Part shown: positions 2,155-45,849 of the stretch, piece after piece
Layout of the letters: the number at the start of each line of letters is the position of its first letter
How positions within the stretch are numbered: position 1 is the stretch's first letter
NCBI GenBank assembly: GCA_047602735.1
Contig: JBLKOK010000001.1
Coordinates: forward strand, 78,261-142,260
Source: Candidatus Woesearchaeota archaeon
Lineage (GTDB): Archaea > Nanobdellota > Nanobdellia > Woesearchaeales > 21-14-0-10-32-9
DNA: 64,000 nt
Direction of reading: 5' to 3'
Position numbers and translations under genes: made by a program
The notes under the pieces: model-generated
Database searches by the model: none
Seen by the model: only the letters and a program-made list of their open reading frames with translations
What the model was told of the DNA's origin: nothing

Positions 2155-2211
2155 TTTTTTATGCCTCCTAATTTTCGTGTTTTTATATTGTTTATACTAA
2201 AAGACATAGCC

Positions 2212-2425
2212 AAAAAAACAGTGTAGAACAAGATACTTTAATGAGTGCTGATTCTTATCCAGCAAGTGAACGTGAATTAAACGCATATGAACTTGTTCTA
2301 AAGTGAATAGTTGACTATGAATGTTGCCCGATACACTAACTCCCAAGCTCATTGCCAGGTCACCAGTATTGGTGCTCCTTATCGGAGTTTCGCCGTAAGC
2401 TCCATTGAGTACTCTCATGTCGGGC
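2212..2425 (-). ncRNA. Unclassified structured RNA (two helix-closed domains, each followed by ACA); identity unresolved (H/ACA-like guide or reduced RNase P-like RNA)
   Basis: This is a locally GC-enriched island in a 318-nt gap between CDSs. On the minus strand, TTTATATA (2455..2448) is centred about 26 nt upstream of GCCCGA. UGCCCGA (2426..2420) pairs with UCGGGCA (2331..2325), followed directly by ACA. UAGAACAAG (2300..2292) pairs with CUUGUUCUA (2232..2224), overlapping ACA. The RNA ends in a U7 run (2218..2212). The 76-aa ORF here has no protein-like features. Confidence 0.55.
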
Positions 2426-2447
2426 ATAAATAAGTAAAAAAATGTAA

Positions 2448-2455
2448 TATATAAA
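2448..2455 (-). promoter_or_regulatory. TATA box candidate for the structured RNA
   Basis: TTTATATA on the minus strand sits at the archaeal -26/-27 spacing from the first G of the GC-rich island. Confidence 0.4.
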
Positions 2456-2472
2456 TGTTGTTAAAGATAAAT

Positions 2473-3438
2473 TCAACTTATCCTAGCAACGATTCTTAAC
2501 TCATCCAAGAGTGATTCAAACTCCTGTTGAGCTAAAGATTGTGATAAGAAAGCTCTTATATCTTCCCTTGCATCATTTAAAGATATTTCTTCAGCAGGCA
2601 AAACATCATCTTTTATCATTATGTGAATTCCAAACATTGTTTCAACGTTTCTTATTTCACCAATTTCCATTTCTAATCCTGCATCTTTGAATTCTTCAAC
2701 AAAAGGATCATTTTGACCAAAAACATACTCACCACATTGATCAGTACTTGCAATATCATCATTATATTCAGTTACAAGTTCACAGAAATTAGAAGCATCT
2801 TGATTTATCAAATCTCTTACTTCTTGTGCTTTTTGTTGATAGTCTTCATTTTCATTACTTATTAAAATGTGTCTTACAACAGCTCTTTCAGGTTGTTGAA
2901 ATTGATCTAAATTTTGAGCATAATAAAGATTTATATCTTCATCTAAAACATCTATTTGCGCTATTACTTGATCAATTAATAATGAAATAACTAAGTTATT
3001 TTCAAAATATGATTCGAAATAATTAAAACTTACACCTCCTAATTCTAATTGTGCTCTTAAATCTTCTTCAGTTAGACCATTAGCTATAAGTATATCGTTG
3101 AACTCTTGTGATACTTCTTCATTAGAAACCCTTAAATTTCTTCTATTAGCTTCTTGCAATAAAAGAGTCTCAGTCACTATTTCATCAAGTGCTTGTTCCT
3201 GAGTTGCTTGAACCCCCATAGTTTGCATAAAAGCTAACCTATTTTGAAGATCTTCTTGAGTTATCTTATCGCCATTTACAGTTAATACAACAGACTGAGT
3301 AGAACCAGATAGCAATGAGTTTATTAGTAGTACAGCTACAATACCTATTAAAAGTATCGAAGAAATTATTTGATACTTATAATTTTTCATTAATTTTTTA
3401 TTTTTAAATAAAGATTTTTTTTTAACCAAAAATATCAC
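2473..3438 (-). CDS. Membrane-anchored or secreted parvulin-type peptidyl-prolyl isomerase (PrsA/SurA-like)
   Basis: There is an N-terminal hydrophobic anchor (ISSILLIGIVAVLLI), a SurA_N-like helical region and a rotamase core (RHILIS...FGIHIMI). The true start may be the internal MKNYKYQ at 3390. Confidence 0.6.
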   Translation of the reverse strand: MIFLVKKKSLFKNKKLMKNYKYQIISSILLIGIVAVLLINSLLSGSTQSVVLTVNGDKITQEDLQNRLAFMQTMGVQATQEQALDEIVTETLLLQEANRRNLRVSNEEVSQEFNDILIANGLTEEDLRAQLELGGVSFNYFESYFENNLVISLLIDQVIAQIDVLDEDINLYYAQNLDQFQQPERAVVRHILISNENEDYQQKAQEVRDLINQDASNFCELVTEYNDDIASTDQCGEYVFGQNDPFVEEFKDAGLEMEIGEIRNVETMFGIHIMIKDDVLPAEEISLNDAREDIRAFLSQSLAQQEFESLLDELRIVARIS

Positions 3439-3525
3439 CCTTAGAAATAATGTATAAATTTATAGTTATTAAAAGTATCGGTTTAAAAGGTAAATATATA
3501 AATAATTAAGTAATACAAACATTTA

Positions 3526-5841
3526 ATGAACGATATCGTCATAGGGAGAGAGGAAAAAGATAAGAAACGTTTAGGTTCTAAAGGCACAGTTTTTATAGGT
3601 AAACACTATATACAGATGGGAAGGACTTCCTCATTATCTAATAAGGTAATGCTTGATGTTACAAGAAGCCACGTCGTTTTTATTTGTGGTAAGAGAGGAG
3701 GAGGTAAGTGTCTTACAGGAGATACCGAAATAATTCTTGGAGATGGCAGTTTAAAGAAAATAAGAGATCTAGAGTTTGATGACCATACAATTATGAGCTT
3801 AGATCTTAATTTAAAAATTAATCCAAAAGAAAAAGATGCTTTTTTTGAAAGAGAAGTTTATGAGATATTGGAAGTTACGCTAGGAACTGGTAAAAAAATT
3901 AGATGCACTCCTGAACATCCACTTCTTAGCCTATATGGTTGGGAAGAAGCACAGGATTTGAATATAGGAAATAAGATTGCAACTCCAAAGATTCTTCCAG
4001 TTTTTGGAGAATACGATGTAGAAGAAAAAGAAGTTAAGAAAATAAGCTATAATTTAGGTGTTAATAAAAAAGACGAATCTATAAAAAAAGAAATAGAAAT
4101 GCTTAATTTTAAAGAAGAAAAATTAACTGAAGTACCAGAAGAAATATTTAAGCTTCCAAGATATAAATTAGCAGTTTTTTTAAATAGAGTTATGAGTTGC
4201 GATGCCACGATTTCAAAAGAAGATGAGTGGGTTATTAATTATAAAAATAAGAGCGAGAGAATAACAAAACAAATTCAACATTTACTTTTAAGATTTGGAA
4301 TTATTAGTAGTTTTGTTAAAAAAAGATACAACTATCTTTTAATAGAAGACGGTTTTGTTAAAAATTATCTTGAGAATATTGGTTTTTTTGGAGCTAAAGA
4401 AAAACCACAAAAAGTTGCTTTAAGAGAAACAGCTTACGAAGTAGAACAACTAGATATTCCCGAAGAATTATTAGACTTTTTCGACCCTGAAGATTGGGAA
4501 GTTTTAGGTAAGAACTTTGTTGTTAAAAATAATAATTATAATTATAAAGAAATTAGCGAGACCCAACATAAACAATTTATTTCAAAACTAATTGAGTCAG
4601 ATATATACTGGGATGAAATTGTTAAGCTAGAAAAAATATATAAGAAAACTAAAGTTTATGATTTGACAGTTCCCGAAACTAATAATTTCATAGCAAATAA
4701 CATAATAGTTCATAATTCTTACACTATGGGAGTTATAGCTGAAGGAGTTAGCGAACTTCCTGAAGAAGTTAAAAATAATATTTCTATAATAATACTTGAT
4801 ACAATGGGTGTTTATTGGACTATGAAGTATCCAAATAAACAAGATAAACAATTGCTAGATGAATGGGATTTAGAAGGTAAGAGTCTAGATGTTAAAATAT
4901 TCACCCCCTATAAATATCATGAAGAGTATAAAGAGAAAAATATTCCAACAGACATGCCCTTTGCTATAAAACCATCAGAGCTGTCAGGACAAGATTGGAA
5001 CCAGACATTTAGTATAAAACCAGAAGAACCAATAGGAGTTTTGATTGAAAAAGTTATTAATGATTTACAAGAAGAAGGAATTGATTTCGATATAGATGAC
5101 ATAGTTAACCGAATTAGTAAAGAGACAGATTATGAAAAACATGTTTTGAACGCAGCAAAGAACTTGTTTGAAAACTCTAAAGGATGGGGACTTTTTAATA
5201 AAGACGCTACAACATTAAAAGAAGTTGCAGTAGCAGGACAAGTTTCAGTTTTAGATGTTAGTTGTTATGCAACTATGCCCGGTAGCTGGAACGTCAAGAA
5301 CTTAGTTATAGGATTGATTGCACAAAAATTGTTTGTACAAAGAATGATTGCTAGAAAAGAAGAAGAATTTGGAGCAGTACATAAATCAGCAAATCCTTAT
5401 TCGGACGACGCAGAAACCAAACAAGAATTTCCAATGGTCTGGCTAGTTATAGATGAAGCACACGAATTTTTACCAGTCAAAGGAAAAACTTTAGCAACAG
5501 ATCCATTAGTAACTATACTTAGAGAAGGACGACAACCAGGAATTAGTTTAATTTTAGCAACACAACAACCCGGAAAAATACATACAGATGTTATGACTCA
5601 ATCAGATACAGTTATAGCACATAGAATAACTGCTAAAATGGATACCGATGCACTGGGAACATTGATGCAAAGCTATATGAGAGAAGGATTAGTTCAACAG
5701 CTTGATAATCTTCCAAGAGAAAAAGGTAGTGCAATAATTTTTGATGATACAAACGAAAAAATGTACCCTATAAGAATAAGACCTAGATTTACATGGCACG
5801 GCGGAGGAGCTCCAAGTGCTTTAAAAGAACGCGAAGATTAA
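3526..5841 (+). CDS. HerA/FtsK-superfamily (DUF87-like) P-loop ATPase, host of an intein
   Basis: The Walker A GKRGGGK|S is split by the intein. Walker B is VWLVIDEAHEF, and LILATQQPGKIHTDVMTQSDTVIAHRIT is typical of HerA-like ATPases. Confidence 0.75.
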   Translation: MNDIVIGREEKDKKRLGSKGTVFIGKHYIQMGRTSSLSNKVMLDVTRSHVVFICGKRGGGKCLTGDTEIILGDGSLKKIRDLEFDDHTIMSLDLNLKINPKEKDAFFEREVYEILEVTLGTGKKIRCTPEHPLLSLYGWEEAQDLNIGNKIATPKILPVFGEYDVEEKEVKKISYNLGVNKKDESIKKEIEMLNFKEEKLTEVPEEIFKLPRYKLAVFLNRVMSCDATISKEDEWVINYKNKSERITKQIQHLLLRFGIISSFVKKRYNYLLIEDGFVKNYLENIGFFGAKEKPQKVALRETAYEVEQLDIPEELLDFFDPEDWEVLGKNFVVKNNNYNYKEISETQHKQFISKLIESDIYWDEIVKLEKIYKKTKVYDLTVPETNNFIANNIIVHNSYTMGVIAEGVSELPEEVKNNISIIILDTMGVYWTMKYPNKQDKQLLDEWDLEGKSLDVKIFTPYKYHEEYKEKNIPTDMPFAIKPSELSGQDWNQTFSIKPEEPIGVLIEKVINDLQEEGIDFDIDDIVNRISKETDYEKHVLNAAKNLFENSKGWGLFNKDATTLKEVAVAGQVSVLDVSCYATMPGSWNVKNLVIGLIAQKLFVQRMIARKEEEFGAVHKSANPYSDDAETKQEFPMVWLVIDEAHEFLPVKGKTLATDPLVTILREGRQPGISLILATQQPGKIHTDVMTQSDTVIAHRITAKMDTDALGTLMQSYMREGLVQQLDNLPREKGSAIIFDDTNEKMYPIRIRPRFTWHGGGAPSALKERED
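3709..4716 (+). mobile_element. Intein (336 aa) with a degenerate LAGLIDADG-like endonuclease insert, located in the Walker A loop
   Basis: It starts with CLTGDTEI (block A) and contains TPEH (block B TxxH). LAVFLNRVMSCDAT and NYLENIGFFG are LAGLIDADG-like. VYDLTVPETNNFIANN is block F. It ends in IIVHN followed by the extein Ser. Removing it restores GKRGGGKS. Confidence 0.85.
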
Positions 5842-5893
5842 ACAAAAAAATCAAAGAAAAATATATAATAACTCAAAATTAACTATAATAAAA

Positions 5894-6193
5894 ATGGTTT
5901 TTAGTAAAAATTATGCAAAAACAACTGATAAATCAGTTTACCCGAAGTGGATAGAAGTTTCTTTAACAAAAGAAGAAGAGATAGAAGCAGAAAGAAAGTG
6001 TAGGGAAGAAAATATAACAATTATGAATGAATGTATAGAAGATGCAAAACTAATAGTTAAAGAACAAAAATTGTTTGAAAACCAAAATCATGTTACTCGA
6101 ATAGCAAATGCTTTGTTTGATAAGAGAGCAAGCCACGTAGTTTTTTTTAAAGAAAATAAAACTAAAGAAAAGTTTGATGAACTTAATTCTTAG
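5894..6193 (+). CDS. Hypothetical protein (99 aa, Lys/Glu-rich)
   Basis: ORF only; no recognisable motif. Confidence 0.4.
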   Translation: MVFSKNYAKTTDKSVYPKWIEVSLTKEEEIEAERKCREENITIMNECIEDAKLIVKEQKLFENQNHVTRIANALFDKRASHVVFFKENKTKEKFDELNS

Positions 6194-6695
6194 ATAAACT
6201 TATACTTTTAAACTTGTAATCTAAAGGAAGATGAGTTATCATATTATTTCCATATTTTAATTTAAATTTGTTAACTAAATCATATAATCTTCCTTGTTCT
6301 TTAAATTGTTCTTTAAAAAAAATATGATTTATTTGATGAACAACATCTGATTCGTCGTTATAGAAATTAAGTGCTAAACCCTCTTTTTTAGAGCCGTGAT
6401 AATTCTCTTTATCAGTATAATCATTTATTTCAACATATAAAGATACTAATTCATCAAAATTTTGTTTAGAATGATCTGTTAATCTTAACTTAACTACATT
6501 TTTTTGATTTTTAGGCGCAAGAGGTTCTAATTCATAAAAAGATTCGACTACGTCAAAGCTTTCAAATACATAGTTAAGTTCATCGTCAAATAAATCATTT
6601 ATTATGTACTCAACCCTATCAGATATATTTGCATAATCTTCTTTTAAGATTTGTTTGAATTCTTTCAAATCTAAAACATTGGACATAACTTGCAA
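6183..6695 (-). CDS. Hypothetical protein (170 aa, acidic)
   Basis: ORF only; it is convergent with 5894..6193. Confidence 0.45.
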   Translation of the reverse strand: MQVMSNVLDLKEFKQILKEDYANISDRVEYIINDLFDDELNYVFESFDVVESFYELEPLAPKNQKNVVKLRLTDHSKQNFDELVSLYVEINDYTDKENYHGSKKEGLALNFYNDESDVVHQINHIFFKEQFKEQGRLYDLVNKFKLKYGNNMITHLPLDYKFKSISLSKN

Positions 6696-35175: not shown

Positions 35176-36093
35176 TTGTTAATAAATATGTTATGCGTAG
35201 TAGCGTTTATCGTGTTTGGAATTATGGGTATTTTTTCTTTAAAGTATAGAACACTAGCAAAAGAAGCGCTAAATTGTACTTTTCGAAGAGTTACTTTAAG
35301 AAAATGCGATACTGGTCTTGATAAAAAAGTTAAAAATATGTTTGTTGCCAAGCTTGGACGAAAACATCCACGACTTGGACGTTTTTTATATAAGTACTTT
35401 GAAGTTTTTACATGGATACTAATACTATTAACTGCTTGGTCTATGTATGAGATAGGAGTAGGAACGTATAACTATGCTGTTTACGGAAGTTGTATAAAGC
35501 CAGGAGATAGCGGAGTTTGTATTTTAAACATACAAGAGTCATTAAACCAATACTCCACTATTAGAGCAGATTATCCAGATGAGATGATTTATCCAAGCCC
35601 TAAAGGTCCAAGCATAGGTAATAGTGAATCAGATATCATAGTAATAATGTTTGGATGTTTTACTTGCCCTTATACAACACTCGCAATTCCGAAGATAGAT
35701 GAATTAATTGAAGAATACAAAGACGAAGTTTTATTTGTGTTTAAAGATTTCCCTATACTCAATCATAGATACGCATTTGAAACAGCAACATATGCAAAGT
35801 GTGCTTTAGAACAAAATAAATATTTTGAAGCAAGAACTCTAATTTACACAAATCCCTATTATCATAGCAGACCTGGTGAACTTGCAATAGAATTAAACTT
35901 AGACTTAGATTTGTTTAATGAGTGTATAAATAGTGAAGAAACTGAAAATTATGTGTTTGATGTGTTTGAAGAAGGAATTAACGCACATATTAGAGCAACC
36001 CCTACATTTTTTATTAATGAAGAAATAATAACAGGATCAAGAGATTCGGATATAGATAGAATAAGAAGAGTTATTGAAGAAGAACTAAGATGA
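35176..36093 (+). CDS. DsbA-like thioredoxin-fold oxidoreductase fused to an N-terminal two-TM Cys-containing domain
   Basis: The C-terminal domain has FGCFTCPY (CxxC) and the cis-Pro TPTFFI. The N-terminal region has 2 hydrophobic segments plus Cys pairs (NCTFRRVTLRKC and SCIKPGDSGVC). Confidence 0.7.
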   Translation: MLINMLCVVAFIVFGIMGIFSLKYRTLAKEALNCTFRRVTLRKCDTGLDKKVKNMFVAKLGRKHPRLGRFLYKYFEVFTWILILLTAWSMYEIGVGTYNYAVYGSCIKPGDSGVCILNIQESLNQYSTIRADYPDEMIYPSPKGPSIGNSESDIIVIMFGCFTCPYTTLAIPKIDELIEEYKDEVLFVFKDFPILNHRYAFETATYAKCALEQNKYFEARTLIYTNPYYHSRPGELAIELNLDLDLFNECINSEETENYVFDVFEEGINAHIRATPTFFINEEIITGSRDSDIDRIRRVIEEELR

Positions 36094-38555: not shown

Positions 38556-39515
38556 ATGGATTCGAACGCTATATGGACTGAAAAATACAGACCACAAAAA
38601 TTCTCAGAAGTAAAAGGACAACAAGAAATAGTAAAAAGAGTAGAAGCATTTGTTAAACAAAAAAACTTACCACACTTATTACTTGCAGGTCCGCCAGGCG
38701 TTGGAAAAACTACTCTTTCACTTGTAATAGTAAAAGAGATGTATGGAGATTCATGGAGAGAAAACTTCTTAGAACTTAACGCATCAGATGAGAGAGGAAT
38801 AGATATAGTAAGACAAAAAGTTAAAGACTTTGCAAGAACAAAAAGCATAGGCGATGTTCCTTTTAAAATAATATACTTAGACGAAAGTGATGCTTTAACA
38901 AAAGAAGCGCAACAAGCACTTAGAAGAACAATGGAGAACTACACAACTACTTGTAGATTTATTCTTAGCTGTAATTACTCAAGTAAGATATTAGAACCAA
39001 TACAAAGTAGATGTACTATTTTTAGATTTAAACCACTTAGCAAAGAATCAATATATGAAATAATAGATTCAATTGTTAAAAACGAAAACTTAACAATAGA
39101 TGAAGAAGCAAAAGAAGCATTGTACTATGTGTCAGGAGGAGATGTTAGAAAGCTTGAAAACGTACTTCAAAGCTGTGCAGCAATAACAAAAGATATCAAC
39201 AAAAATACTATTTATGGAATTAGCAGCTTTGCAGAACCAGTAGAGATTAGAGAAGTTCTTAAAAGATGTATAAATCAAGATTTTCAAGGAGCAAAAAAGA
39301 AGTTACTAGACACTATGCTAAACCAAGGATTATCAGGTATAGATGTTATAAAACAACTTCAAAAAGAAGCATGGAATAGTGAAGCAGACGATCAAATAAA
39401 GCTTGAAATGGTAAAGATGTGTGGAGAAGTAGAATTTAGATTAATAGAAGGCAGTGACGAATTCATACAATTAGAAAGCTTACTTGCAAAATTTGTTTTG
39501 ATAAATAAAAAATAA
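38556..39515 (+). CDS. rfcS: Replication factor C small subunit
   Basis: WTEKYRPQKFSEVKGQ, LLLAGPPGVGKTT, the DESD Walker B and SRC (QSRCTIFRF). Confidence 0.95.
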   Translation: MDSNAIWTEKYRPQKFSEVKGQQEIVKRVEAFVKQKNLPHLLLAGPPGVGKTTLSLVIVKEMYGDSWRENFLELNASDERGIDIVRQKVKDFARTKSIGDVPFKIIYLDESDALTKEAQQALRRTMENYTTTCRFILSCNYSSKILEPIQSRCTIFRFKPLSKESIYEIIDSIVKNENLTIDEEAKEALYYVSGGDVRKLENVLQSCAAITKDINKNTIYGISSFAEPVEIREVLKRCINQDFQGAKKKLLDTMLNQGLSGIDVIKQLQKEAWNSEADDQIKLEMVKMCGEVEFRLIEGSDEFIQLESLLAKFVLINKK

Positions 39516-39531
39516 AAAGAAAAGAAAAAAA

Positions 39532-40470
39532 TTAGTTTCTTTCAACTATCACATTCTTTTGAATGTTTTCGTTGTAGTCATAAACAAGTTCTATGTTAAA
39601 AGGTTGTATCCTTGGACTTCTTTCACTAAACGAAATATCACAAGTTATATCAACAACCCCTTGATCACTTAAAACTATGTATCCTTCACTCGGATTAGCA
39701 CCCTCTCTTAATCCTCTACAACTAACTTCTTCTCCTTGAGCTGAACTAAAGCCAGATACTCTTAAGAAAATTCTGTCATTTCTTCTAGCATCACTTGCAC
39801 AACTGTAACCAGTTTCAAATACTCTTCCCTGGTCTCTGTTTTCAATTGTGAAACTAACTCTTGTTCTATCACTACCCGCAGCAGATTGAGTCATCCTAGT
39901 TATTTGTATAGGTGCAGCACTATTAAAGACTTGTCTGCTTGCTGAAACAGTACAAATATCACCTGTTCTATCTCTTCTAAAATCTTCCTTTACACAAACA
40001 CTCGTAGATACCTGAGTTGAATATTTATAACAAATATCTGCTCTTACAGGAAAAGCCTGATTTCCTTGAACAATATTTTGATAAGCAAAATCATTAAACT
40101 CTACTTCTACAGGTACACTACTAACTATGCTCCCATCAGGGTTTTTAAGATTTCTTTCTATTAATTCTGGACTGTTAGAAGTTAAATCAGCAACATTTCT
40201 TCCAAACTGAGAAGCAGGAAATCCACTGATTGTTACAAGAACATCTTTTGGTTCAACATCAGCTTCACCCCTATTTGTAACTTTTACAATTATGTCAAAA
40301 GGGTCCTCTCCACCGTCACTAACTGTTGCAGGCGGAAAACTATCTACAAAAGAAATTTTCAAACCTTGCGTTCCTCCAATAAACGGAGTCGTACTATCAA
40401 ATCCCGTGTTTGACTCACAAGCTGCAAGTAAAAGCAGCATCGCCGTCAATATAATAAACATTTTTTTCAT
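39532..40470 (-). CDS. Secreted Cys-rich lipobox protein, paralogue 3 of the surface-protein operon
   Basis: The signal peptide ends in LLLAAC. It has 6 further Cys and shares motifs with 40493..41803 and 41832..42809 (CYKYSTQVSTSVCV, AAPIQIT, FTIENRDQGRVFE, ELVYDYNENIQKNVIVER). Confidence 0.75.
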   Translation of the reverse strand: MKKMFIILTAMLLLLAACESNTGFDSTTPFIGGTQGLKISFVDSFPPATVSDGGEDPFDIIVKVTNRGEADVEPKDVLVTISGFPASQFGRNVADLTSNSPELIERNLKNPDGSIVSSVPVEVEFNDFAYQNIVQGNQAFPVRADICYKYSTQVSTSVCVKEDFRRDRTGDICTVSASRQVFNSAAPIQITRMTQSAAGSDRTRVSFTIENRDQGRVFETGYSCASDARRNDRIFLRVSGFSSAQGEEVSCRGLREGANPSEGYIVLSDQGVVDITCDISFSERSPRIQPFNIELVYDYNENIQKNVIVERN

Positions 40471-40492: not shown

Positions 40493-41803
40493 TTAACTTA
40501 ATCTCCTTACGCGCAGATTATTATTAATATTTTGCTCATAACCATACCAAAGCTCCATTCTAAGAGGAGTAACATAAGCACTTCCACTTATAAATTCATC
40601 TGCAAAATTATAAGTACAAGTAAATCTACCAACCCCATTATTTAATCTTATGGTTCTTTGAGTACAATCTATGAATGTATCATCTATCATTACAAACCCA
40701 ACATAAACTACATCATGATGATTTCTACCAGTTCCAGTTTCTGGATAATAAGGACTGCAACGCTCAAGGCTTCCAACCTCCCAAACACGTCCGTTACCAA
40801 CATTTCTTACTTCAAAATCCATCACTACACTTCTCCCAGTGTTTCTTTGACTAACTCTTGTAACTGCAACAGGAGCACCTTGATTACTCATAGCTATATC
40901 TTGATTAGCCCTACAAACACCCCTATCACCACTCCAAGGATCAGGATCTACACAAATCATAGGACTAACAAAAGTAGTATATGCATAACAGCTTCTTACC
41001 TGATAAGGAATATTTATTTCATCAGTCCCACTAGGCCAACTACCCTTCATTTGAACTAAAAATTGTTTATAATCATCTCCACCACCTGGAAACTCAGGAT
41101 TATCCCCTCTTAAAGTATAAGTCATACCATTTAAATTTTCAAAATTAAAATTGCCATATATTAAAGACATTAAAAGCTTACCATGATATAAAGTATTTAA
41201 TTGAAAACCATCCAAAGCAAGATTAAAACCCCAATGATTGCCTGTTTGTTGAATTCCAACCCTAACTCCTTCAGGAAGATCCCATCCAAATGCTCTATTC
41301 ATTTGACTAAAATCAAAATTAATTGTTCTTCTATCACCCGCTCCCCTAACACCTATACCACCACAATTTAAATTAAAATTAGGTAAAGGACCAAAAGAAC
41401 CAAAACTAAAACCACAACTATCACCAAAACCTCTTATATTAATAGGTAACTCAGTTCCATCCCCGTATATCCTTGTGACTTCAAAAGTAGGACCAAAACC
41501 AGATAAAAACACAGCTCCATAAGCATCACTCGCACCCCTATTATGAACCCTAACATTTAATTGAATTGCATTACCATCTCTTGTGTTAGTAGCATCTATA
41601 GATCTGTAATAAAGCATGTTTGGAGGCCTATCCAAAATTATGTCAACTCCCTGGGTGCCCGTATAATATCTACAATTTTGACCCTCAGCACAAGCAACAG
41701 CTCTATCAGCACCAAAACCACCACAACCAGCTATAAAAAGTAACGAAACTAATAATACAGGTAATAAAAATTTATTTTTCATAGTAAGTATACTCATAAA
41801 CAT
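40493..41803 (-). CDS. Secreted Cys-rich lipobox protein, paralogue 2 (Gly/Asn-rich insert)
   Basis: The likely start is MKNKFLL (41782). Lipobox FIAGC; 10 further Cys. Motifs are CYAYTTFVSPMICV, GAPVAVT, FEVRNVGNGRVWE and ELWYGYEQNINNNLRVRR. Confidence 0.75.
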   Translation of the reverse strand: MFMSILTMKNKFLLPVLLVSLLFIAGCGGFGADRAVACAEGQNCRYYTGTQGVDIILDRPPNMLYYRSIDATNTRDGNAIQLNVRVHNRGASDAYGAVFLSGFGPTFEVTRIYGDGTELPINIRGFGDSCGFSFGSFGPLPNFNLNCGGIGVRGAGDRRTINFDFSQMNRAFGWDLPEGVRVGIQQTGNHWGFNLALDGFQLNTLYHGKLLMSLIYGNFNFENLNGMTYTLRGDNPEFPGGGDDYKQFLVQMKGSWPSGTDEINIPYQVRSCYAYTTFVSPMICVDPDPWSGDRGVCRANQDIAMSNQGAPVAVTRVSQRNTGRSVVMDFEVRNVGNGRVWEVGSLERCSPYYPETGTGRNHHDVVYVGFVMIDDTFIDCTQRTIRLNNGVGRFTCTYNFADEFISGSAYVTPLRMELWYGYEQNINNNLRVRRLS

Positions 41804-41831: not shown

Positions 41832-42809
41832 CTAATTTCTTCTTATTTCTACTTGTTTTGAAGTTTGGTCTAAATAATAATAATCAAGCCAAACAGTTAA
41901 AACATCTTGATAACTGCTTGAAGCCCCGAATAAATCATCTTCTTGAACAACACACCTAACTCTCGCCTGATTATTTCTAAGAATAACAGGGTTTGGAGTG
42001 CAATCAAGCTTTATCCCTAGTAATTCAGCCTCTACTTTTATTTCACCAAGAATCCTGTCTGAGCTAGCAGTACAAGCACCTAACCCTTTATCAGTTCCAA
42101 AAACTAAGCCTTGGCCTAAGTTTCTTATAGTTATCTCAAAACTAGGTTGTAAAAGCATAAGTCTTGCTTCAACAACTTCAGAGCCAATTCGCCTTAAATT
42201 ACCATCTTCATCTAAATAAGACCTAGCAGTATCTTGACTTGAAGAAATAAAACCTCTTGGAATAACAGTAGGTTCAATACTTGTTATACCCACAGGAGCT
42301 CCTTGACCTGAATAAGAATGCATAGTTCTTGATCTACAAACACTATTTCTTTGAGTTCCAAATAAATCACTATCTATACAAAAGAAATCTGTGAGTATCG
42401 TAGTGTAAGGATAACAAGTAGATACAGAAATAGAAGTTCTGACTGTCTCTCTTGAACCAGTAATTGATCTTACTTGAAGATTTTCCAAATCACTAATAAA
42501 ACCCATTTCTCCAAAAGGATAATCAGGCTGCTTACCCAATAATTCAAACTCTTCTATTATCTTCCCAGAACCAGTAAAATAAAAAGTATCATACTCAAAA
42601 ATTACTTTGCCGTTTGTATCAAAAGCACCTCTGTTATATACGTTTGCACCAAGCATAAAAGGAGTGTCTTCATAAATTGTAACAGGAGGAGTGTTTTGAG
42701 CAAAACTTGCAACAACCCCCTCTCTTCCCTGAAAATAATTAACCTCACTAAATGAAGGTTGAGAACAAGCCGCAAGTATTAGCAAAACTAATAATAAATA
42801 CCTCATCAT
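41832..42809 (-). CDS. Secreted Cys-rich lipobox protein, paralogue 1
   Basis: Lipobox ILAAC; 6 further Cys. Motifs are CYPYTTILTDFFCI, GAPVGIT, ITIRNLGQGLVFG and VWLDYYYLDQTSKQVEIRR. Its ATG overlaps the upstream stop (ATGA). Confidence 0.75.
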   Translation of the reverse strand: MMRYLLLVLLILAACSQPSFSEVNYFQGREGVVASFAQNTPPVTIYEDTPFMLGANVYNRGAFDTNGKVIFEYDTFYFTGSGKIIEEFELLGKQPDYPFGEMGFISDLENLQVRSITGSRETVRTSISVSTCYPYTTILTDFFCIDSDLFGTQRNSVCRSRTMHSYSGQGAPVGITSIEPTVIPRGFISSSQDTARSYLDEDGNLRRIGSEVVEARLMLLQPSFEITIRNLGQGLVFGTDKGLGACTASSDRILGEIKVEAELLGIKLDCTPNPVILRNNQARVRCVVQEDDLFGASSSYQDVLTVWLDYYYLDQTSKQVEIRRN

Positions 42810-44650
42810 GAGCTACCACCTGGAAGTCTTAAAACATTAATATCAGTTCTAGAAGTTAATTGATAATCATAACTAACTTCAGCAAAAATAGTTACCGGTC
42901 TTACACCAGAACTTGAAATTTGATCAACACTTCTATCGTTAATTTTTGCATTACAACTTACAGCTAAGAAATTAATATCAGAATCAAAATCATAACTGTA
43001 AATAACATAGTTTTGATCTGGATCAGTACCTTGTCTAGTGAGAGGAATAGTACATTGGTTACCTTCAAAACTTATAGCTTCAGGAACTCTTGTTTCAAAG
43101 TTGTTTATCCTTGTTATTTCTCCCCTTAATTGATTATTTCTAATACCAAAATCTAGAGCAAAGAAAGTATCTCTATCATCAAATGTAGGTATTGGCATAG
43201 TTACAGATTCATTCATACCTAAAAATACAGGCCCATTAGTATAAATATTTGTTGGCCTTAAAGGAATTCTATGTCTTTGATTCCAAGTTTGCCTTGAAGC
43301 TTCTTCTAAAGTAGATCTTGGAACAAAATAATAAGTACTATAAGCACTTGTTTTAAAGTTAAACCTAGCATCTAACCTAGCGCTAAATCTTCCCGCACTT
43401 ATATTCATATCCTCAAAATCACAAAATATTCTTCTATCCTCAAAGTCAGAAACATTTATACTCGGAGGAGTTGTAGTCCCCATAACTTCTCTTCCATTCC
43501 TATCCGTCAACGAACAGAAAAATTCAACTTCTACGTTATCAATATAAGATCTTACTTGGAAATCAGCAAATACTCGTATAGGTTGATTTTCATAAAAAGT
43601 ACTAGCAGGTCTTAAGTTATCTAAAAACACCCCTGAACGCTCCCTAGTATTCTCTACTTGAGCAGCATATCCTCTACCAAGAGTTTCATTAAGTCTTGCA
43701 TCTACAGCACCAGTTATAGCCCCATAAGTATTTTTTATATTATCAGTTATAGCAGACAAAGCACTAGATAAATATTCTCTTCCATCCCCAATAACTTCAT
43801 CTGTATCTAATCCTTGTGCAGAACCAACTTCTCCAATAGTTCCTGAAAATGAATTTAACATTAAAAACAAAGCAATAGTTATCATCGCCGCCAAATAAAA
43901 TAAACTAGCCCTCCCTAAGAAGCCTTGATTTATTTGTTTTGCAAATACTAAGTATAAAACCCAAACAGGTATAAACATAAATGCAACATTTAACTGACTT
44001 ATTATTACTTGATCAATAGGAAGCATACTAAACAACCTGCCTATCTGCGGAATAATAAATAACGGAAATAAACTAACAAAAAAGAATTCTTTTAATGCGA
44101 CACCTTTATCCATTTTAATTAATGCTAAACCCGCTAAAGATAATAACATGTAAAGAAATATTCTTTGCATAATCGTAATGGTATCAATTCTAAAACCAAA
44201 ATATAAAAAATCTATAATGTGAACAAGTATAGCTAATGCTAAAAGTATTTGACCTCCTCCCTGATTATTTTCTTCAGGATTATAATCTGATTTTTTAAGT
44301 AACCAACTAAGTCCAGCACCTATAGCCGCTCCAGCACCTACAGCTAATTTTTTAGATCTTAAAGCAGATTGATTATTAGGAGCTTGAGGACTATTTTGAT
44401 TATTAGCTTGATTGTTTTGCTGAGACTGACTTAACTGACTTTGCAACCTACTAACTCTTTGTTCTAATTCTTTTAAATGATCTTCAGATGCTTTTTTAGC
44501 ATCACCCTCTAATGACTCATGACGCTTACTTGCAATACTATGAGCTATTTTAGCAGACTGAAGCATACTCATAATTTTTTCTTCGCTACCTATTGCAGCA
44601 GATCTTGTTCTCATATCAGCACCCGCTCTAGCAAGTAATTGCCAGACCAT
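42806..44650 (-). CDS. Polytopic membrane protein with a cytoplasmic coiled-coil/QN-rich N-terminus and a large ectodomain related to the lipobox paralogues
   Basis: 614 aa, with about six hydrophobic segments (residues ~100-270). The C-terminal 330 aa contain FGIRNNQLRGEI and a terminal EVSYDYQLTSRTDINVLR resembling the paralogue signatures. The ectodomain has 4 Cys. Confidence 0.7.
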   Translation of the reverse strand: MVWQLLARAGADMRTRSAAIGSEEKIMSMLQSAKIAHSIASKRHESLEGDAKKASEDHLKELEQRVSRLQSQLSQSQQNNQANNQNSPQAPNNQSALRSKKLAVGAGAAIGAGLSWLLKKSDYNPEENNQGGGQILLALAILVHIIDFLYFGFRIDTITIMQRIFLYMLLSLAGLALIKMDKGVALKEFFFVSLFPLFIIPQIGRLFSMLPIDQVIISQLNVAFMFIPVWVLYLVFAKQINQGFLGRASLFYLAAMITIALFLMLNSFSGTIGEVGSAQGLDTDEVIGDGREYLSSALSAITDNIKNTYGAITGAVDARLNETLGRGYAAQVENTRERSGVFLDNLRPASTFYENQPIRVFADFQVRSYIDNVEVEFFCSLTDRNGREVMGTTTPPSINVSDFEDRRIFCDFEDMNISAGRFSARLDARFNFKTSAYSTYYFVPRSTLEEASRQTWNQRHRIPLRPTNIYTNGPVFLGMNESVTMPIPTFDDRDTFFALDFGIRNNQLRGEITRINNFETRVPEAISFEGNQCTIPLTRQGTDPDQNYVIYSYDFDSDINFLAVSCNAKINDRSVDQISSSGVRPVTIFAEVSYDYQLTSRTDINVLRLPGGSS

Positions 44651-44651
44651 T

Positions 44652-45818
44652 TTATTTTAACTCAACTTTGAGCTCAGTTATATCCACAGTTTGAAGAGCT
44701 CTAACTTCTAATGAATTAGAACCTGGAACTAAATAAGACGAAACATCTCTTGTAAACACAGAATCTGCAACGTTTACAGATATAAATCTGCCATTAAGGA
44801 ATATTTCCAATCTTTTCCTGTCTGGATTTGTAAACCTTAAATTTAGCTCAGCCTCTCTATTTTGTCTTAAGGTTTCATTTTCATAAAAATACTTTTCATC
44901 AACATCAAAAATAAAAAGAGGGTTATCCGGTATTTCTAATCTTTTAAGTAATCTAAGTTGATCTATTGTTATAGTTCCATCATCAATACTAAACTCTAAA
45001 TAATTTACCCCTGGATATAAGTCTTCTCTAGATAAACTTATATGATTAAAAATATTACAATCAGGAATTCCTCTAAATACCGTGTTATGATTTACTTTTA
45101 TCTCAAAGTTGCTTACTTGCCCAGGATTACAAGTTGCTAAGTATCTTAATCTTGCAGTACTTAACAAAACTGCGTCTCTTTCAGATAAACTCATAGTTTG
45201 AGTGTTAAAAGATCTAGTTATATCAGTTACGTCACCAACCACTCTTAGATTTGAGATGTCGTAATAATTGTATGACCAAAATACTAAACCAGGACTAGAA
45301 ACTAAAAATTTTAATGTGTTTGAATTTCTAAGATCTGAATTATCAATGTATATAGGAGGACTATTCCCATCTATTTCTCCAAAGAAAATTCTTTTATCAT
45401 TTAGCAATACTTCTAATCTTCCCTTACCAACTGCGTTGAACGTGACTATTAAGTCTTCAGCTAACTCAGGATTTATATTAAAAGTCAAAGTATCATCTAT
45501 ATTATCAAATAAACTGTTTTTTACATATAAATTAGATTTACTAGCAACAACCTCCGCAGAAGTAAGAGTTCTCAAATTAAAACTTTGAAGATCTAAACCT
45601 AATTCTGAATCTGGAACAAAATTTAACCTACCAATAAATTCATCAACAAGAACTAGAGGTCTTGACGCAGAAGGCTCAGTAGAAGAATCACCATTATTTA
45701 ATAATGCTTCTCTGTCTGCTGGAGGTAAAAACAATATATATAAGACTATAACAACAGTTATAACAATAAGAGTTATAGCCGCACTATTTGCACTAGATTG
45801 AGCTTTTTTGAATTTCAT
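44652..45818 (-). CDS. Prepilin-like (class III signal-like) surface protein with three internal beta-sandwich-like repeats
   Basis: The N-terminus is MKFKKAQSSANSAAITLIVITVVIVLYILF (basic residues, A/Q, then a hydrophobic helix). Three segments share the pattern LE[VI]xLN...F...G.N.L.F...I..L.V. Confidence 0.65.
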   Translation of the reverse strand: MKFKKAQSSANSAAITLIVITVVIVLYILFLPPADREALLNNGDSSTEPSASRPLVLVDEFIGRLNFVPDSELGLDLQSFNLRTLTSAEVVASKSNLYVKNSLFDNIDDTLTFNINPELAEDLIVTFNAVGKGRLEVLLNDKRIFFGEIDGNSPPIYIDNSDLRNSNTLKFLVSSPGLVFWSYNYYDISNLRVVGDVTDITRSFNTQTMSLSERDAVLLSTARLRYLATCNPGQVSNFEIKVNHNTVFRGIPDCNIFNHISLSREDLYPGVNYLEFSIDDGTITIDQLRLLKRLEIPDNPLFIFDVDEKYFYENETLRQNREAELNLRFTNPDRKRLEIFLNGRFISVNVADSVFTRDVSSYLVPGSNSLEVRALQTVDITELKVELK

Positions 45819-45840
45819 AACATATTTAATTGACGAAAGT

Positions 45841-45849
45841 ATATATAAA
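45841..45849 (-). promoter_or_regulatory. TATA box candidate for the surface-protein operon
   Basis: The minus strand reads CTTTATATATAC, centred about 27 nt upstream of the ATG at 45818. This would give a leaderless or near-leaderless transcript. Confidence 0.4.

Follow-up and report, generated by a model that had tools for sequence, protein, structure and literature searches.

We analyzed a 64,000-nucleotide stretch of contig JBLKOK010000001.1 from a Woesearchaeota genome (positions 78,261 to 142,260; referred to below as the window), and in particular a gene on its minus strand that encodes a polytopic membrane protein, P0001. Sequence comparison and structural modeling indicate that P0001 is the hydrolase-free form of a conserved woesearchaeal surface platform. 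The best explanation of the evidence as a whole, which we favor on balance, is that P0001 is the membrane subunit of a five-protein surface module specific to Woesearchaeota-type DPANN archaea. Since relatives of P0001 end in cell-wall-cutting enzymes, this module probably faces bacteria, and it may touch them. Woesearchaeota and their relatives account for a large share of archaeal diversity, have no characterized cell surface, and have a known host or partner in almost no case; the module is a concrete gene set with which the published idea of attachment to, or predation on, bacteria can be tested.

Gene family and operon

The open reading frame (ORF) at window positions 42806 to 44650, predicted earlier from the letters alone, is exact in its boundaries and encodes 614 amino acids. 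P0001 is a real conserved gene and not a chance ORF, because a HMMER profile search recovers 915 representative proteins or clusters at E<=1e-3, 735 of them at E<=1e-10; a word-based search for relatives gave 2 matches only. The sequence-only reading of this DNA had proposed looking for homologues that retain the transmembrane (TM) core, and this is the part that the family keeps: most of the profile matches start at the first strong TM segment, and nearly all run from there to the end of the protein. Of 301 genomes sampled from the order, 176 have the family, and an improved profile finds it in 203 of 301 genomes of a phylum-wide sample that includes other orders of the class. P0001 carries the whole family signature, consisting of a five-TM core with P201 and P228, an NETLG-YY-G-VE motif, the cysteines C379, C410, C533, and C566, the pair G473-P474, G510, and Y594-x-Y596. 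These residues are kept in 90% to 100% of 148 representatives (P228 in 89% to 90%).

The family lies outside the protein families described so far in the databases that were searched. P0001 had no match above cut-off in Pfam-A, where the best was Wzt_C (E 0.057; 13.9 bits, below the cut-off of 30.4), and only low-complexity matches in NCBIfam, while its family profile gave only spurious TM matches among the PDB sequences (E>=0.011). For each of the five proteins of the operon, likewise, no match in Pfam or NCBIfam rose above cut-off, and PDB sequence searches with the operon family profiles returned nothing meaningful. The Wzt_C hint and one to MG4 were set aside as beta-sandwich noise.

P0001 is the second of five closely packed genes in the order P0005-P0001-P0002-P0003-P0004, all on the minus strand and separated by 1, -4, 28, and 22 nucleotides, in agreement with the co-operonic setting with three lipoproteins that had been read from the sequence. 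The five genes look like one transcription unit because the gaps are tight and the set is bounded by a TATA-like box ahead of the first ATG and by a T-rich tract behind the last stop codon.

45840..45848, minus strand: TATA-like box TTTATATAT, about 26 nucleotides upstream of the P0005 ATG; likely operon promoter, from sequence reading
44652..45818, minus strand: P0005, 388 amino acids, first operon gene, pilin-like according to its family alignment
42806..44650, minus strand: P0001, 614 amino acids, polytopic membrane subunit (ORF and translation, family of 915, AlphaFold2 model)
41832..42809, minus strand: P0002, 325 amino acids, lipobox protein (LAAC, from sequence), paralogue 1
40493..41803, minus strand: P0003, 436 amino acids, lipobox protein (IAGC, from sequence), paralogue 2
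39532..40470, minus strand: P0004, 312 amino acids, lipobox protein (LAAC), paralogue 3, modeled by AlphaFold2 as two beta-sandwiches
39501..39531, minus strand: T-rich tract directly past the P0004 stop codon; likely archaeal terminator, from sequence reading

This arrangement is conserved. Using P1 to P5 for the families of P0001 to P0005, we compared 22 loci, which represent many families of the order: P1 is immediately preceded by P5 in 21 and followed by a P2-type lipoprotein in 21, the order P5-P1-P2 is kept in 20, and P3- and P4-type lipoproteins lie downstream in most of the loci that reach far enough. The flanking genes vary by locus yet are housekeeping genes (eRF1, RFC, Topo VI, PheRS), and the window itself holds the archaeal housekeeping genes for Topo VI A/B, the RFC small subunit, a Rio kinase, and a KH protein. 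Its G+C content is 26% to 35%, and the source genome amounts to 817 kb in 7 contigs, at an estimated completeness of about 76%. An origin as a mobile element or defence system was rejected on account of the housekeeping flanks and of a gene order inherited across the order.

The three lipoproteins are mutually paralogous (P3 versus P4, E 2e-14; P2 versus P4, E 7e-7). Of 62 lipoprotein homologues, 57 have a strict lipobox, defined as [LVI][ASTVI][GAS]C closing an N-terminal signal, and five have [GA]-C in the corresponding position. P0005 begins with KKAQ, about 20 hydrophobic residues, and YILFLPPxDRxxLL, and continues with three beta-rich modules that repeat one another. Its N-terminus is predicted to be a class III or pilin-like signal or signal anchor, and P5 homologues share the [KR][KR][GA]Q motif, the hydrophobic helix of about 20 residues, the YILFLPPxDRxxLL motif, and the three modules. 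The repeats of P0005, with the pattern '...LNG..I......I.....L..G.N.I.I.P......I.EL.V', presumably recall jelly-roll carbohydrate-binding modules, and they have no match in Pfam. An A24 prepilin peptidase and T2SSE-type ATPases are encoded in the source genome, outside the operon.

Topology and domain build of the membrane subunit

An AlphaFold2 model of P0001, computed with a 32-sequence alignment as input, has a mean predicted local distance difference test score (pLDDT) of 80. Together with the sequence and the family alignments, it divides the protein into the following parts.

44396..44650, minus strand: predicted cytoplasmic helical hairpin, residues 1-85 (helices 2-44 and 50-85, pLDDT about 80 to 90); lineage-specific
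44366..44431, minus strand: Q/N-rich low-complexity tract SQSQQNNQANNQNSPQAPNNQS, residues 74-95, from sequence; pLDDT below 50 from residue 87
44297..44350, minus strand: weak Ala/Gly-rich segment with KK flanks, residues 101-118, below the KD-19 threshold; probably no TM helix
43847..44263, minus strand: conserved five-TM core, residues 130-268, from the model helices, conservation in 142 representatives, and the loop charge pattern
43667..43804, minus strand: predicted long external helix (stalk), residues 283-328, pLDDT 41 to 65, ending in the conserved NETLG-YY-G-VE
43271..43648, minus strand: beta-sandwich domain 1, residues 335-460, with invariant C379 and C410; strands 340-444 at pLDDT >90, tandem immunoglobulin-like (Ig-like) matches in Foldseek
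42821..43267, minus strand: beta-sandwich domain 2, residues 462-610, with G473-P474, G510, C533, C566, and Y594/Y596, from the model and the hhalign and BLASTP comparisons given below

Hydropathy analysis finds five strong hydrophobic segments (residues 135-153, 160-178, 189-207, 222-240, and 250-268), and the model places TM helices at residues 130-151, 157-177, 182-207, 214-237, and 244-279. Five is also the modal TM count, found in 18 of 32 homologues. The most conserved residues of this core are H144 and D147 in the first helix (TM1), Y167 in TM2, P201 in TM3, and P228, W230, and Y233 in TM4, kept in 73% to 94% of the 142 representatives. The H-x-x-D pair of TM1 (H144-D147; window 44209-44221, minus strand) is kept in about 80% of them.

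We strongly infer that the C-terminal domain of P0001 is external and its N-terminus cytoplasmic, because the TM count is odd, the charges follow the positive-inside pattern, four cysteines are near-invariant, and relatives carry hydrolase fusions at the C-terminus. Over the 32 homologues, the 25 residues before TM1 have a net charge of +1.6 and the 25 after TM5 one of -1.8, and the loops presumed to lie inside carry more positive charge than those outside. In 148 sequences, C379, C410, C533, and C566 show little or no variation, and the rest of P0001 is free of cysteine, which suggests external beta-sandwich domains stabilized by conserved cysteines. The hydrolase fusions point the same way, since a murein-free archaeon has no internal substrate for such enzymes. 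All of these lines put the ectodomain on a polytopic anchor outside the cell, as had been proposed from the sequence, and none places it in the cytoplasm.

The sequence-only reading counted about six TM segments and noted that an even count would make the topology inconsistent. The polytopic hydrophobic core stands, but the TM number of its conserved part is five, which removes the inconsistency; the sixth segment, residues 101-118, is the weak one, and it is missing from the homologue P0007. If it were a true TM helix, either the C-terminal domain would be cytoplasmic (N-terminus inside) or the coiled coil external (N-terminus outside). This is very improbable: the 17-residue stretch LAVGAGAAIGAGLSWLL scores 1.74 in a 17-residue Kyte-Doolittle window and has KK on both flanks, and the close relative P0006 has a comparable stretch, but many other homologues with a short N-terminus lack the segment as P0007 does, the model gives it a pLDDT of 36 to 44 (36 to 53 over residues 101-123), a cytoplasmic C-terminal domain clashes with the invariant cysteines and the C-terminal wall-hydrolase fusions, and a highly charged external N-terminus of 100 residues (13 K+R) without a signal peptide is unlikely. 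The weakness of the segment, the invariant cysteines, and the fusions led us to reject a topology of six TMs that leaves the C-terminal domain in the cytoplasm.

The C-terminal part of P0001 (about residues 335-610, some 280 amino acids) is modeled as all-beta at a pLDDT of about 90 and forms two Ig-like beta-sandwiches (residues 340-444 and 467-607). The protein ends in EVSYDYQLTSRTDINVLR, which matches the lipoprotein ends ELVYDYNENIQKNVIVER, ELWYGYEQNINNNLRVRR, and VWLDYYYLDQTSKQVEIRR; the C-terminal signature noticed earlier is thus a strand of the form xYxY...V.V.R common to P0001 and the three lipoproteins. P0001 stops 4 to 8 residues past the last beta-strand (LPGGSS), and neither the Pfam and NCBIfam scans nor the model show a hydrolase domain in it. 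It has no N-terminal signal or lipobox, its first cysteine being C379. A Foldseek search against viral structures gave generic Ig-like matches only.

A relationship between this ectodomain and the lipoproteins, also proposed from the sequence, is probable when sequence profiles and structural models are taken together. The best pairwise BLASTP match is to P0004 (E 0.002 over the last 95 residues). In hhalign comparisons the P0001 ectodomain family aligns collinearly with each lipoprotein family (E 0.0046 for P2, 0.036 for P3, and 0.0045 for P4) and with a combined lipoprotein profile at E 0.0011 over 159 columns (probability 20%). The score for the P2 family is 30, against 13.5 +/- 2.1 in column shuffles; this null was clean for P2 and had erratic outliers for P4, and only the P2 result was used. 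With the genome background as control, members of the P1 family are enriched among the weak matches of a hidden Markov model (HMM) of the lipoproteins. Family-invariant residues coincide in these alignments: F430/F432/T434 with Y148/Y150/T152, P474 with P187, G510 with G215, C566 with C277, and Y594/Y596 with Y297/Y299. C533 pairs with either of two conserved lipoprotein cysteines, depending on the alignment run.

The structural comparison gives the same picture. The AlphaFold2 model of P0004 (pLDDT 94, predicted TM-score 0.86) consists of two beta-sandwiches, and it resembles that of P0001 in its tandem build, with each domain closing in a long hairpin. We judged the likeness of fold from the domain build and from the Foldseek match lists against the PDB, which overlap strongly for the two models and include integrin alphaV, the C-terminal barrels of transglutaminase, MSCRAMM adhesins, the soluble domain of AglB/STT3, and protein 4.2. 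The ectodomain of P0001 is thus probably a distant paralogue of the lipoproteins encoded behind it.

The cysteine-rich surface operon has a neighbor 7 kb away, a gene (window 35176-36093, plus strand) for a membrane-anchored protein of 305 amino acids that has two hydrophobic segments near the N-terminus and, toward the C-terminus, a thioredoxin/DsbA-like domain (Thioredoxin_4 E 1.3e-21, DSBA 1.2e-7). Its sequence makes it a candidate external disulfide oxidoreductase, which would fit such an operon.

The N-terminal region of P0001 is built as had been read from the sequence, soluble and helical, with two long helices in the model followed by the unstructured stretch that holds the Q/N tract. 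A platform linking a cytoplasmic partner had also been suggested, and for this we find no conserved role. The N-terminal part is lineage-specific because the stretch before TM1 varies from 0 to 241 amino acids in the 32 homologues (fewer than 40 in half of them) and profile matches mostly start at the first strong TM. In the alignment of the 142 representatives, the occupancy of columns 1-120 is 0.27 to 0.5. By these comparisons the hairpin and Q/N tract appear to be a lineage-specific addition outside the conserved machine, present in the family of the source organism and in some others, and a conserved cytoplasmic adaptor function was rejected for the same variation between lineages. The addition might serve, for example, oligomerization in the cytoplasm. 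The spacing of L59, L62, V66, L69, and L72 looks heptad-like by eye, and the two helices come from a monomer model.

Wall-hydrolase fusions and the proposed surface module

The evidence that connects P0001 to bacteria comes from its relatives. We scanned 28 homologue ORFs longer than 750 amino acids and found a peptidoglycan hydrolase domain past the ectodomain in 14: SLT in 8, Amidase_2 in 2 (one of which also has a muramidase domain), M23 in 2, and NlpC/P60 in 2. One further long homologue has a PKD domain. A Pfam scan of the 51 longest representatives found the same hydrolase domains again, and hydrolase-bearing homologues lie in the same operon at loci L050, L051, and L060; L052 has a long homologue whose domain content was not scanned. 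The membrane subunit has repeatedly acquired five kinds of bacterial-wall hydrolase, which the earlier reading had not foreseen. The window holds the hydrolase-free form, a bare platform of five TMs, a predicted stalk, and two Ig-like domains, and this is the part needed to understand assembly.

The source genome has wall hydrolases of its own, namely a 371-amino acid pilin-like protein with Amidase_2 (E 1.4e-28) and an adjoining 866-amino acid protein with 3D and SLT domains. They lie outside the window, on contig C1 at about 121.6-128.9 kb (L064 5595-12890, minus strand), in a run of small pilin-like genes that carry these hydrolases and encode N-termini such as MNKKAQ..., MNKRA..., MNKKG..., MKKGS..., and KNKKGQ....

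In the arrangement that we propose, the N-terminus of P0001 would be cytoplasmic, extended here by the helical hairpin and Q/N linker, and five TM helices would cross the membrane, from which a long helix would hold the two Ig-like beta-sandwiches outside. The pilin-like protein encoded upstream would be the fifth member of the module beside P0001 and the three lipoproteins. The five proteins would most likely form a surface scaffold, a hetero-oligomer fixed to the cell by TM helices, by lipid, and by a pilin-type helix. The distal end of this scaffold would be exposed and able to reach bacterial walls, because it is the free C-terminus of the subunit that bears a peptidoglycan-cutting enzyme in relatives. 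In the source organism the subunit has no enzyme attached, and separate loci of the genome encode wall hydrolases. On this evidence, it is plausible that the five proteins form a complex and that the module contacts bacteria.

Several points weigh against this explanation. P0001 itself carries no hydrolase, so the link to bacterial walls rests on its relatives, and in about half of the long homologues the C-terminal extension has no recognizable domain. Complex formation is read from operon conservation and paralogy only. The paralogy of the ectodomain is weakly supported at the level of sequence, since the hhalign probability is just 20%, and an HMM of all lipoproteins searched against the P1 family plus the genome background gave no significant match, the best P1 member (E 0.011) lying amid the background. 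The tandem Ig-like fold is common, and convergence could account for the likeness. The stalk helix comes from a low-confidence part of the model. Lastly, the conservation of H144, D147, Y167, and W230 suggests that the TM core may do more than anchor.

The module might instead be a general structural layer of the envelope, an S-layer-like coat or its anchors, without contact to bacteria, in which case the hydrolases of relatives would use an exposed display site. We regard this as possible although unlikely. It would suit a single-copy locus that in most genomes lies in a core-genome neighborhood between housekeeping genes and is widespread over the order and class, as well as the lack of hydrolases in P0001 and most members of its family. 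Tandem Ig-like domains and lipid or stalked TM anchors are also typical of archaeal S-layers (general knowledge; reviewed in PMC5744192). The fusions are harder to reconcile with such a layer, since one and the same subunit has gained, in independent fusions, members of at least five unrelated families of wall hydrolases, which speaks for a functional link over chance. Five different subunits also exceed the one or two proteins typical of S-layers, and about 40% of the sampled genomes have no match, though many of these are incomplete or divergent.

The comparison with well-known S-layers can be made from general knowledge. SlaB/SlaA of the Sulfolobales and the csg S-layer of Haloferax volcanii are like the module in having external Ig-like domains on a stalk or lipid anchor and a core single-copy locus. 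They differ in showing no sequence similarity to it and in the anchor, as SlaB has one C-terminal TM whereas P0001 has five near its N-terminus. The module also has five different subunits, and the high abundance and two-dimensional surface lattice that mark an S-layer would be hypothetical in its case.

The surface module that we favor could have a more specific role, as a contact or feeding organelle directed toward bacterial, not archaeal, partners, with P0001 as its base plate. This reading is tentative, and we think it rather unlikely to hold in full. Binding to the bacterial wall would fall to the Ig-like subunits and to the lectin-like pilin-type protein. In relatives the base plate itself would bear the wall-cutting enzymes, and in the source genome these would be recruited from the separately encoded pilin-like amidase and SLT proteins. 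The H-x-x-D pair of TM1 might serve a conduit or processing.

Published work on the same lineages approaches this question from the enzymes. The part of Castelle et al. 2021 (PMC8204110) that bears on it describes 51 families, mostly of unknown function, that form a module specific to Pacearchaeota and Woesearchaeota; one of them ('fam00969', Module 98) comprises large extracellular SLT proteins proposed to bind or degrade bacterial walls. The corresponding passages of Vigneron et al. 2022 (PMC9723730) argue for a predatory lifestyle from the same enzymes. More recently, archaeal peptidoglycan hydrolases were reported to be capable of killing bacteria and to be prominent in Nanoarchaeota (PMC12352652, 2025). 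The SLT/GH23 proteins of Woesearchaeota and Pacearchaeota resemble the P1 family in taxa and in the proposed contact with bacterial walls, and long P0001 homologues are made up of the five-TM core, two beta-sandwiches, and SLT; P0001 differs in having no hydrolase domain. The likeness to fam00969 is one of description, and the passages of PMC8204110 and PMC9723730 that deal with these proteins treat the hydrolase domain only, with no platform or operon. In the literature searched we found no description of the membrane platform, the lipoprotein paralogues, or the five-gene operon.

The conservation of the TM core raises the question of whether the core is itself an enzyme or transporter, with H144, D147, and Y167 as catalytic or gating residues near the outer leaflet. 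Such a core might, for instance, process the lipoproteins of the same operon or move them across the membrane, or it might import lipids or pieces of cell wall; the beta-sandwiches and lipoproteins would then bind the substrate. Among the 142 representatives, 78% to 83% keep the polar residues in the TM helices and about 90% keep P201 and P228, and the conserved membrane part of the protein is this core and not the N-terminus. In addition, to our knowledge, no archaeal lipoprotein signal peptidase has been identified. Lipoproteins are reported to be common in DPANN archaea (PMC12462473). Even so, we consider an enzyme or transporter improbable, because H144 and D147 are not invariant, the core shows no similarity to transporter or protease families in Pfam, NCBIfam, or the PDB, and the operon has no ATPase or other energizing component. 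A gene that occurs once per genome and goes with three particular paralogues is more in keeping with a structural partner than with a general processing enzyme. Conservation of the core could reflect contact with the helix of a partner, such as that of P5, as well as an activity.

Two further groups of proteins resemble single parts of the surface module. Adhesin and scaffold beta-sandwiches in the PDB share the fold class of the P0001 ectodomain and P0004 at Foldseek E values of 1e-6 to 1e-3; beyond the matches already given, they include Vibrio cholerae RbmA, the N2-N3 domains of the MSCRAMMs Cna and SdrG, the calf and thigh domains of integrin, complement MG domains, and the C-terminal domain of AglB/STT3. 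TM-scores of 0.1 to 0.3 and identities of 6% to 12% set them apart, they give no specific family match, and a five-TM anchor is absent from all of them. Modular type IV pilins and class III signal-peptide proteins of the bindosome type (PMC13705601) resemble P0005 in the [KR][KR][GA]Q motif and hydrophobic helix, and the A24 prepilin peptidase of the genome fits with them. This likeness belongs to P0005 and not to P0001, the operon has no assembly ATPase or platform gene, and cleavage of P0005 is putative.

Variants of the operon in other genomes

Some P5 homologues are longer, at 557 to 584 amino acids (L048 10789-12468, L056 6725-8395, L060 10766-12475, and L059 9982-11733). These carry, between the second and third repeat, a 170-amino acid insert of cysteine-rich repeats (CG-x2-DG-x-CP-x2-C-x4-D-x-DCC) that has no match in Pfam. 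P2 forms of about 520 amino acids with an N-terminal extension are found in some other genomes.

The gene order also varies in places. At L060 an ORF of 1472 amino acids on the opposite strand (2160-6578, plus strand) lies between a 1373-amino acid P1 homologue bearing M23 and the first lipoprotein gene, which breaks the usual order. Two tandem P4-type genes are present in some genomes (L044 3305-5424 and L046 13296-15449), making a six-gene operon.

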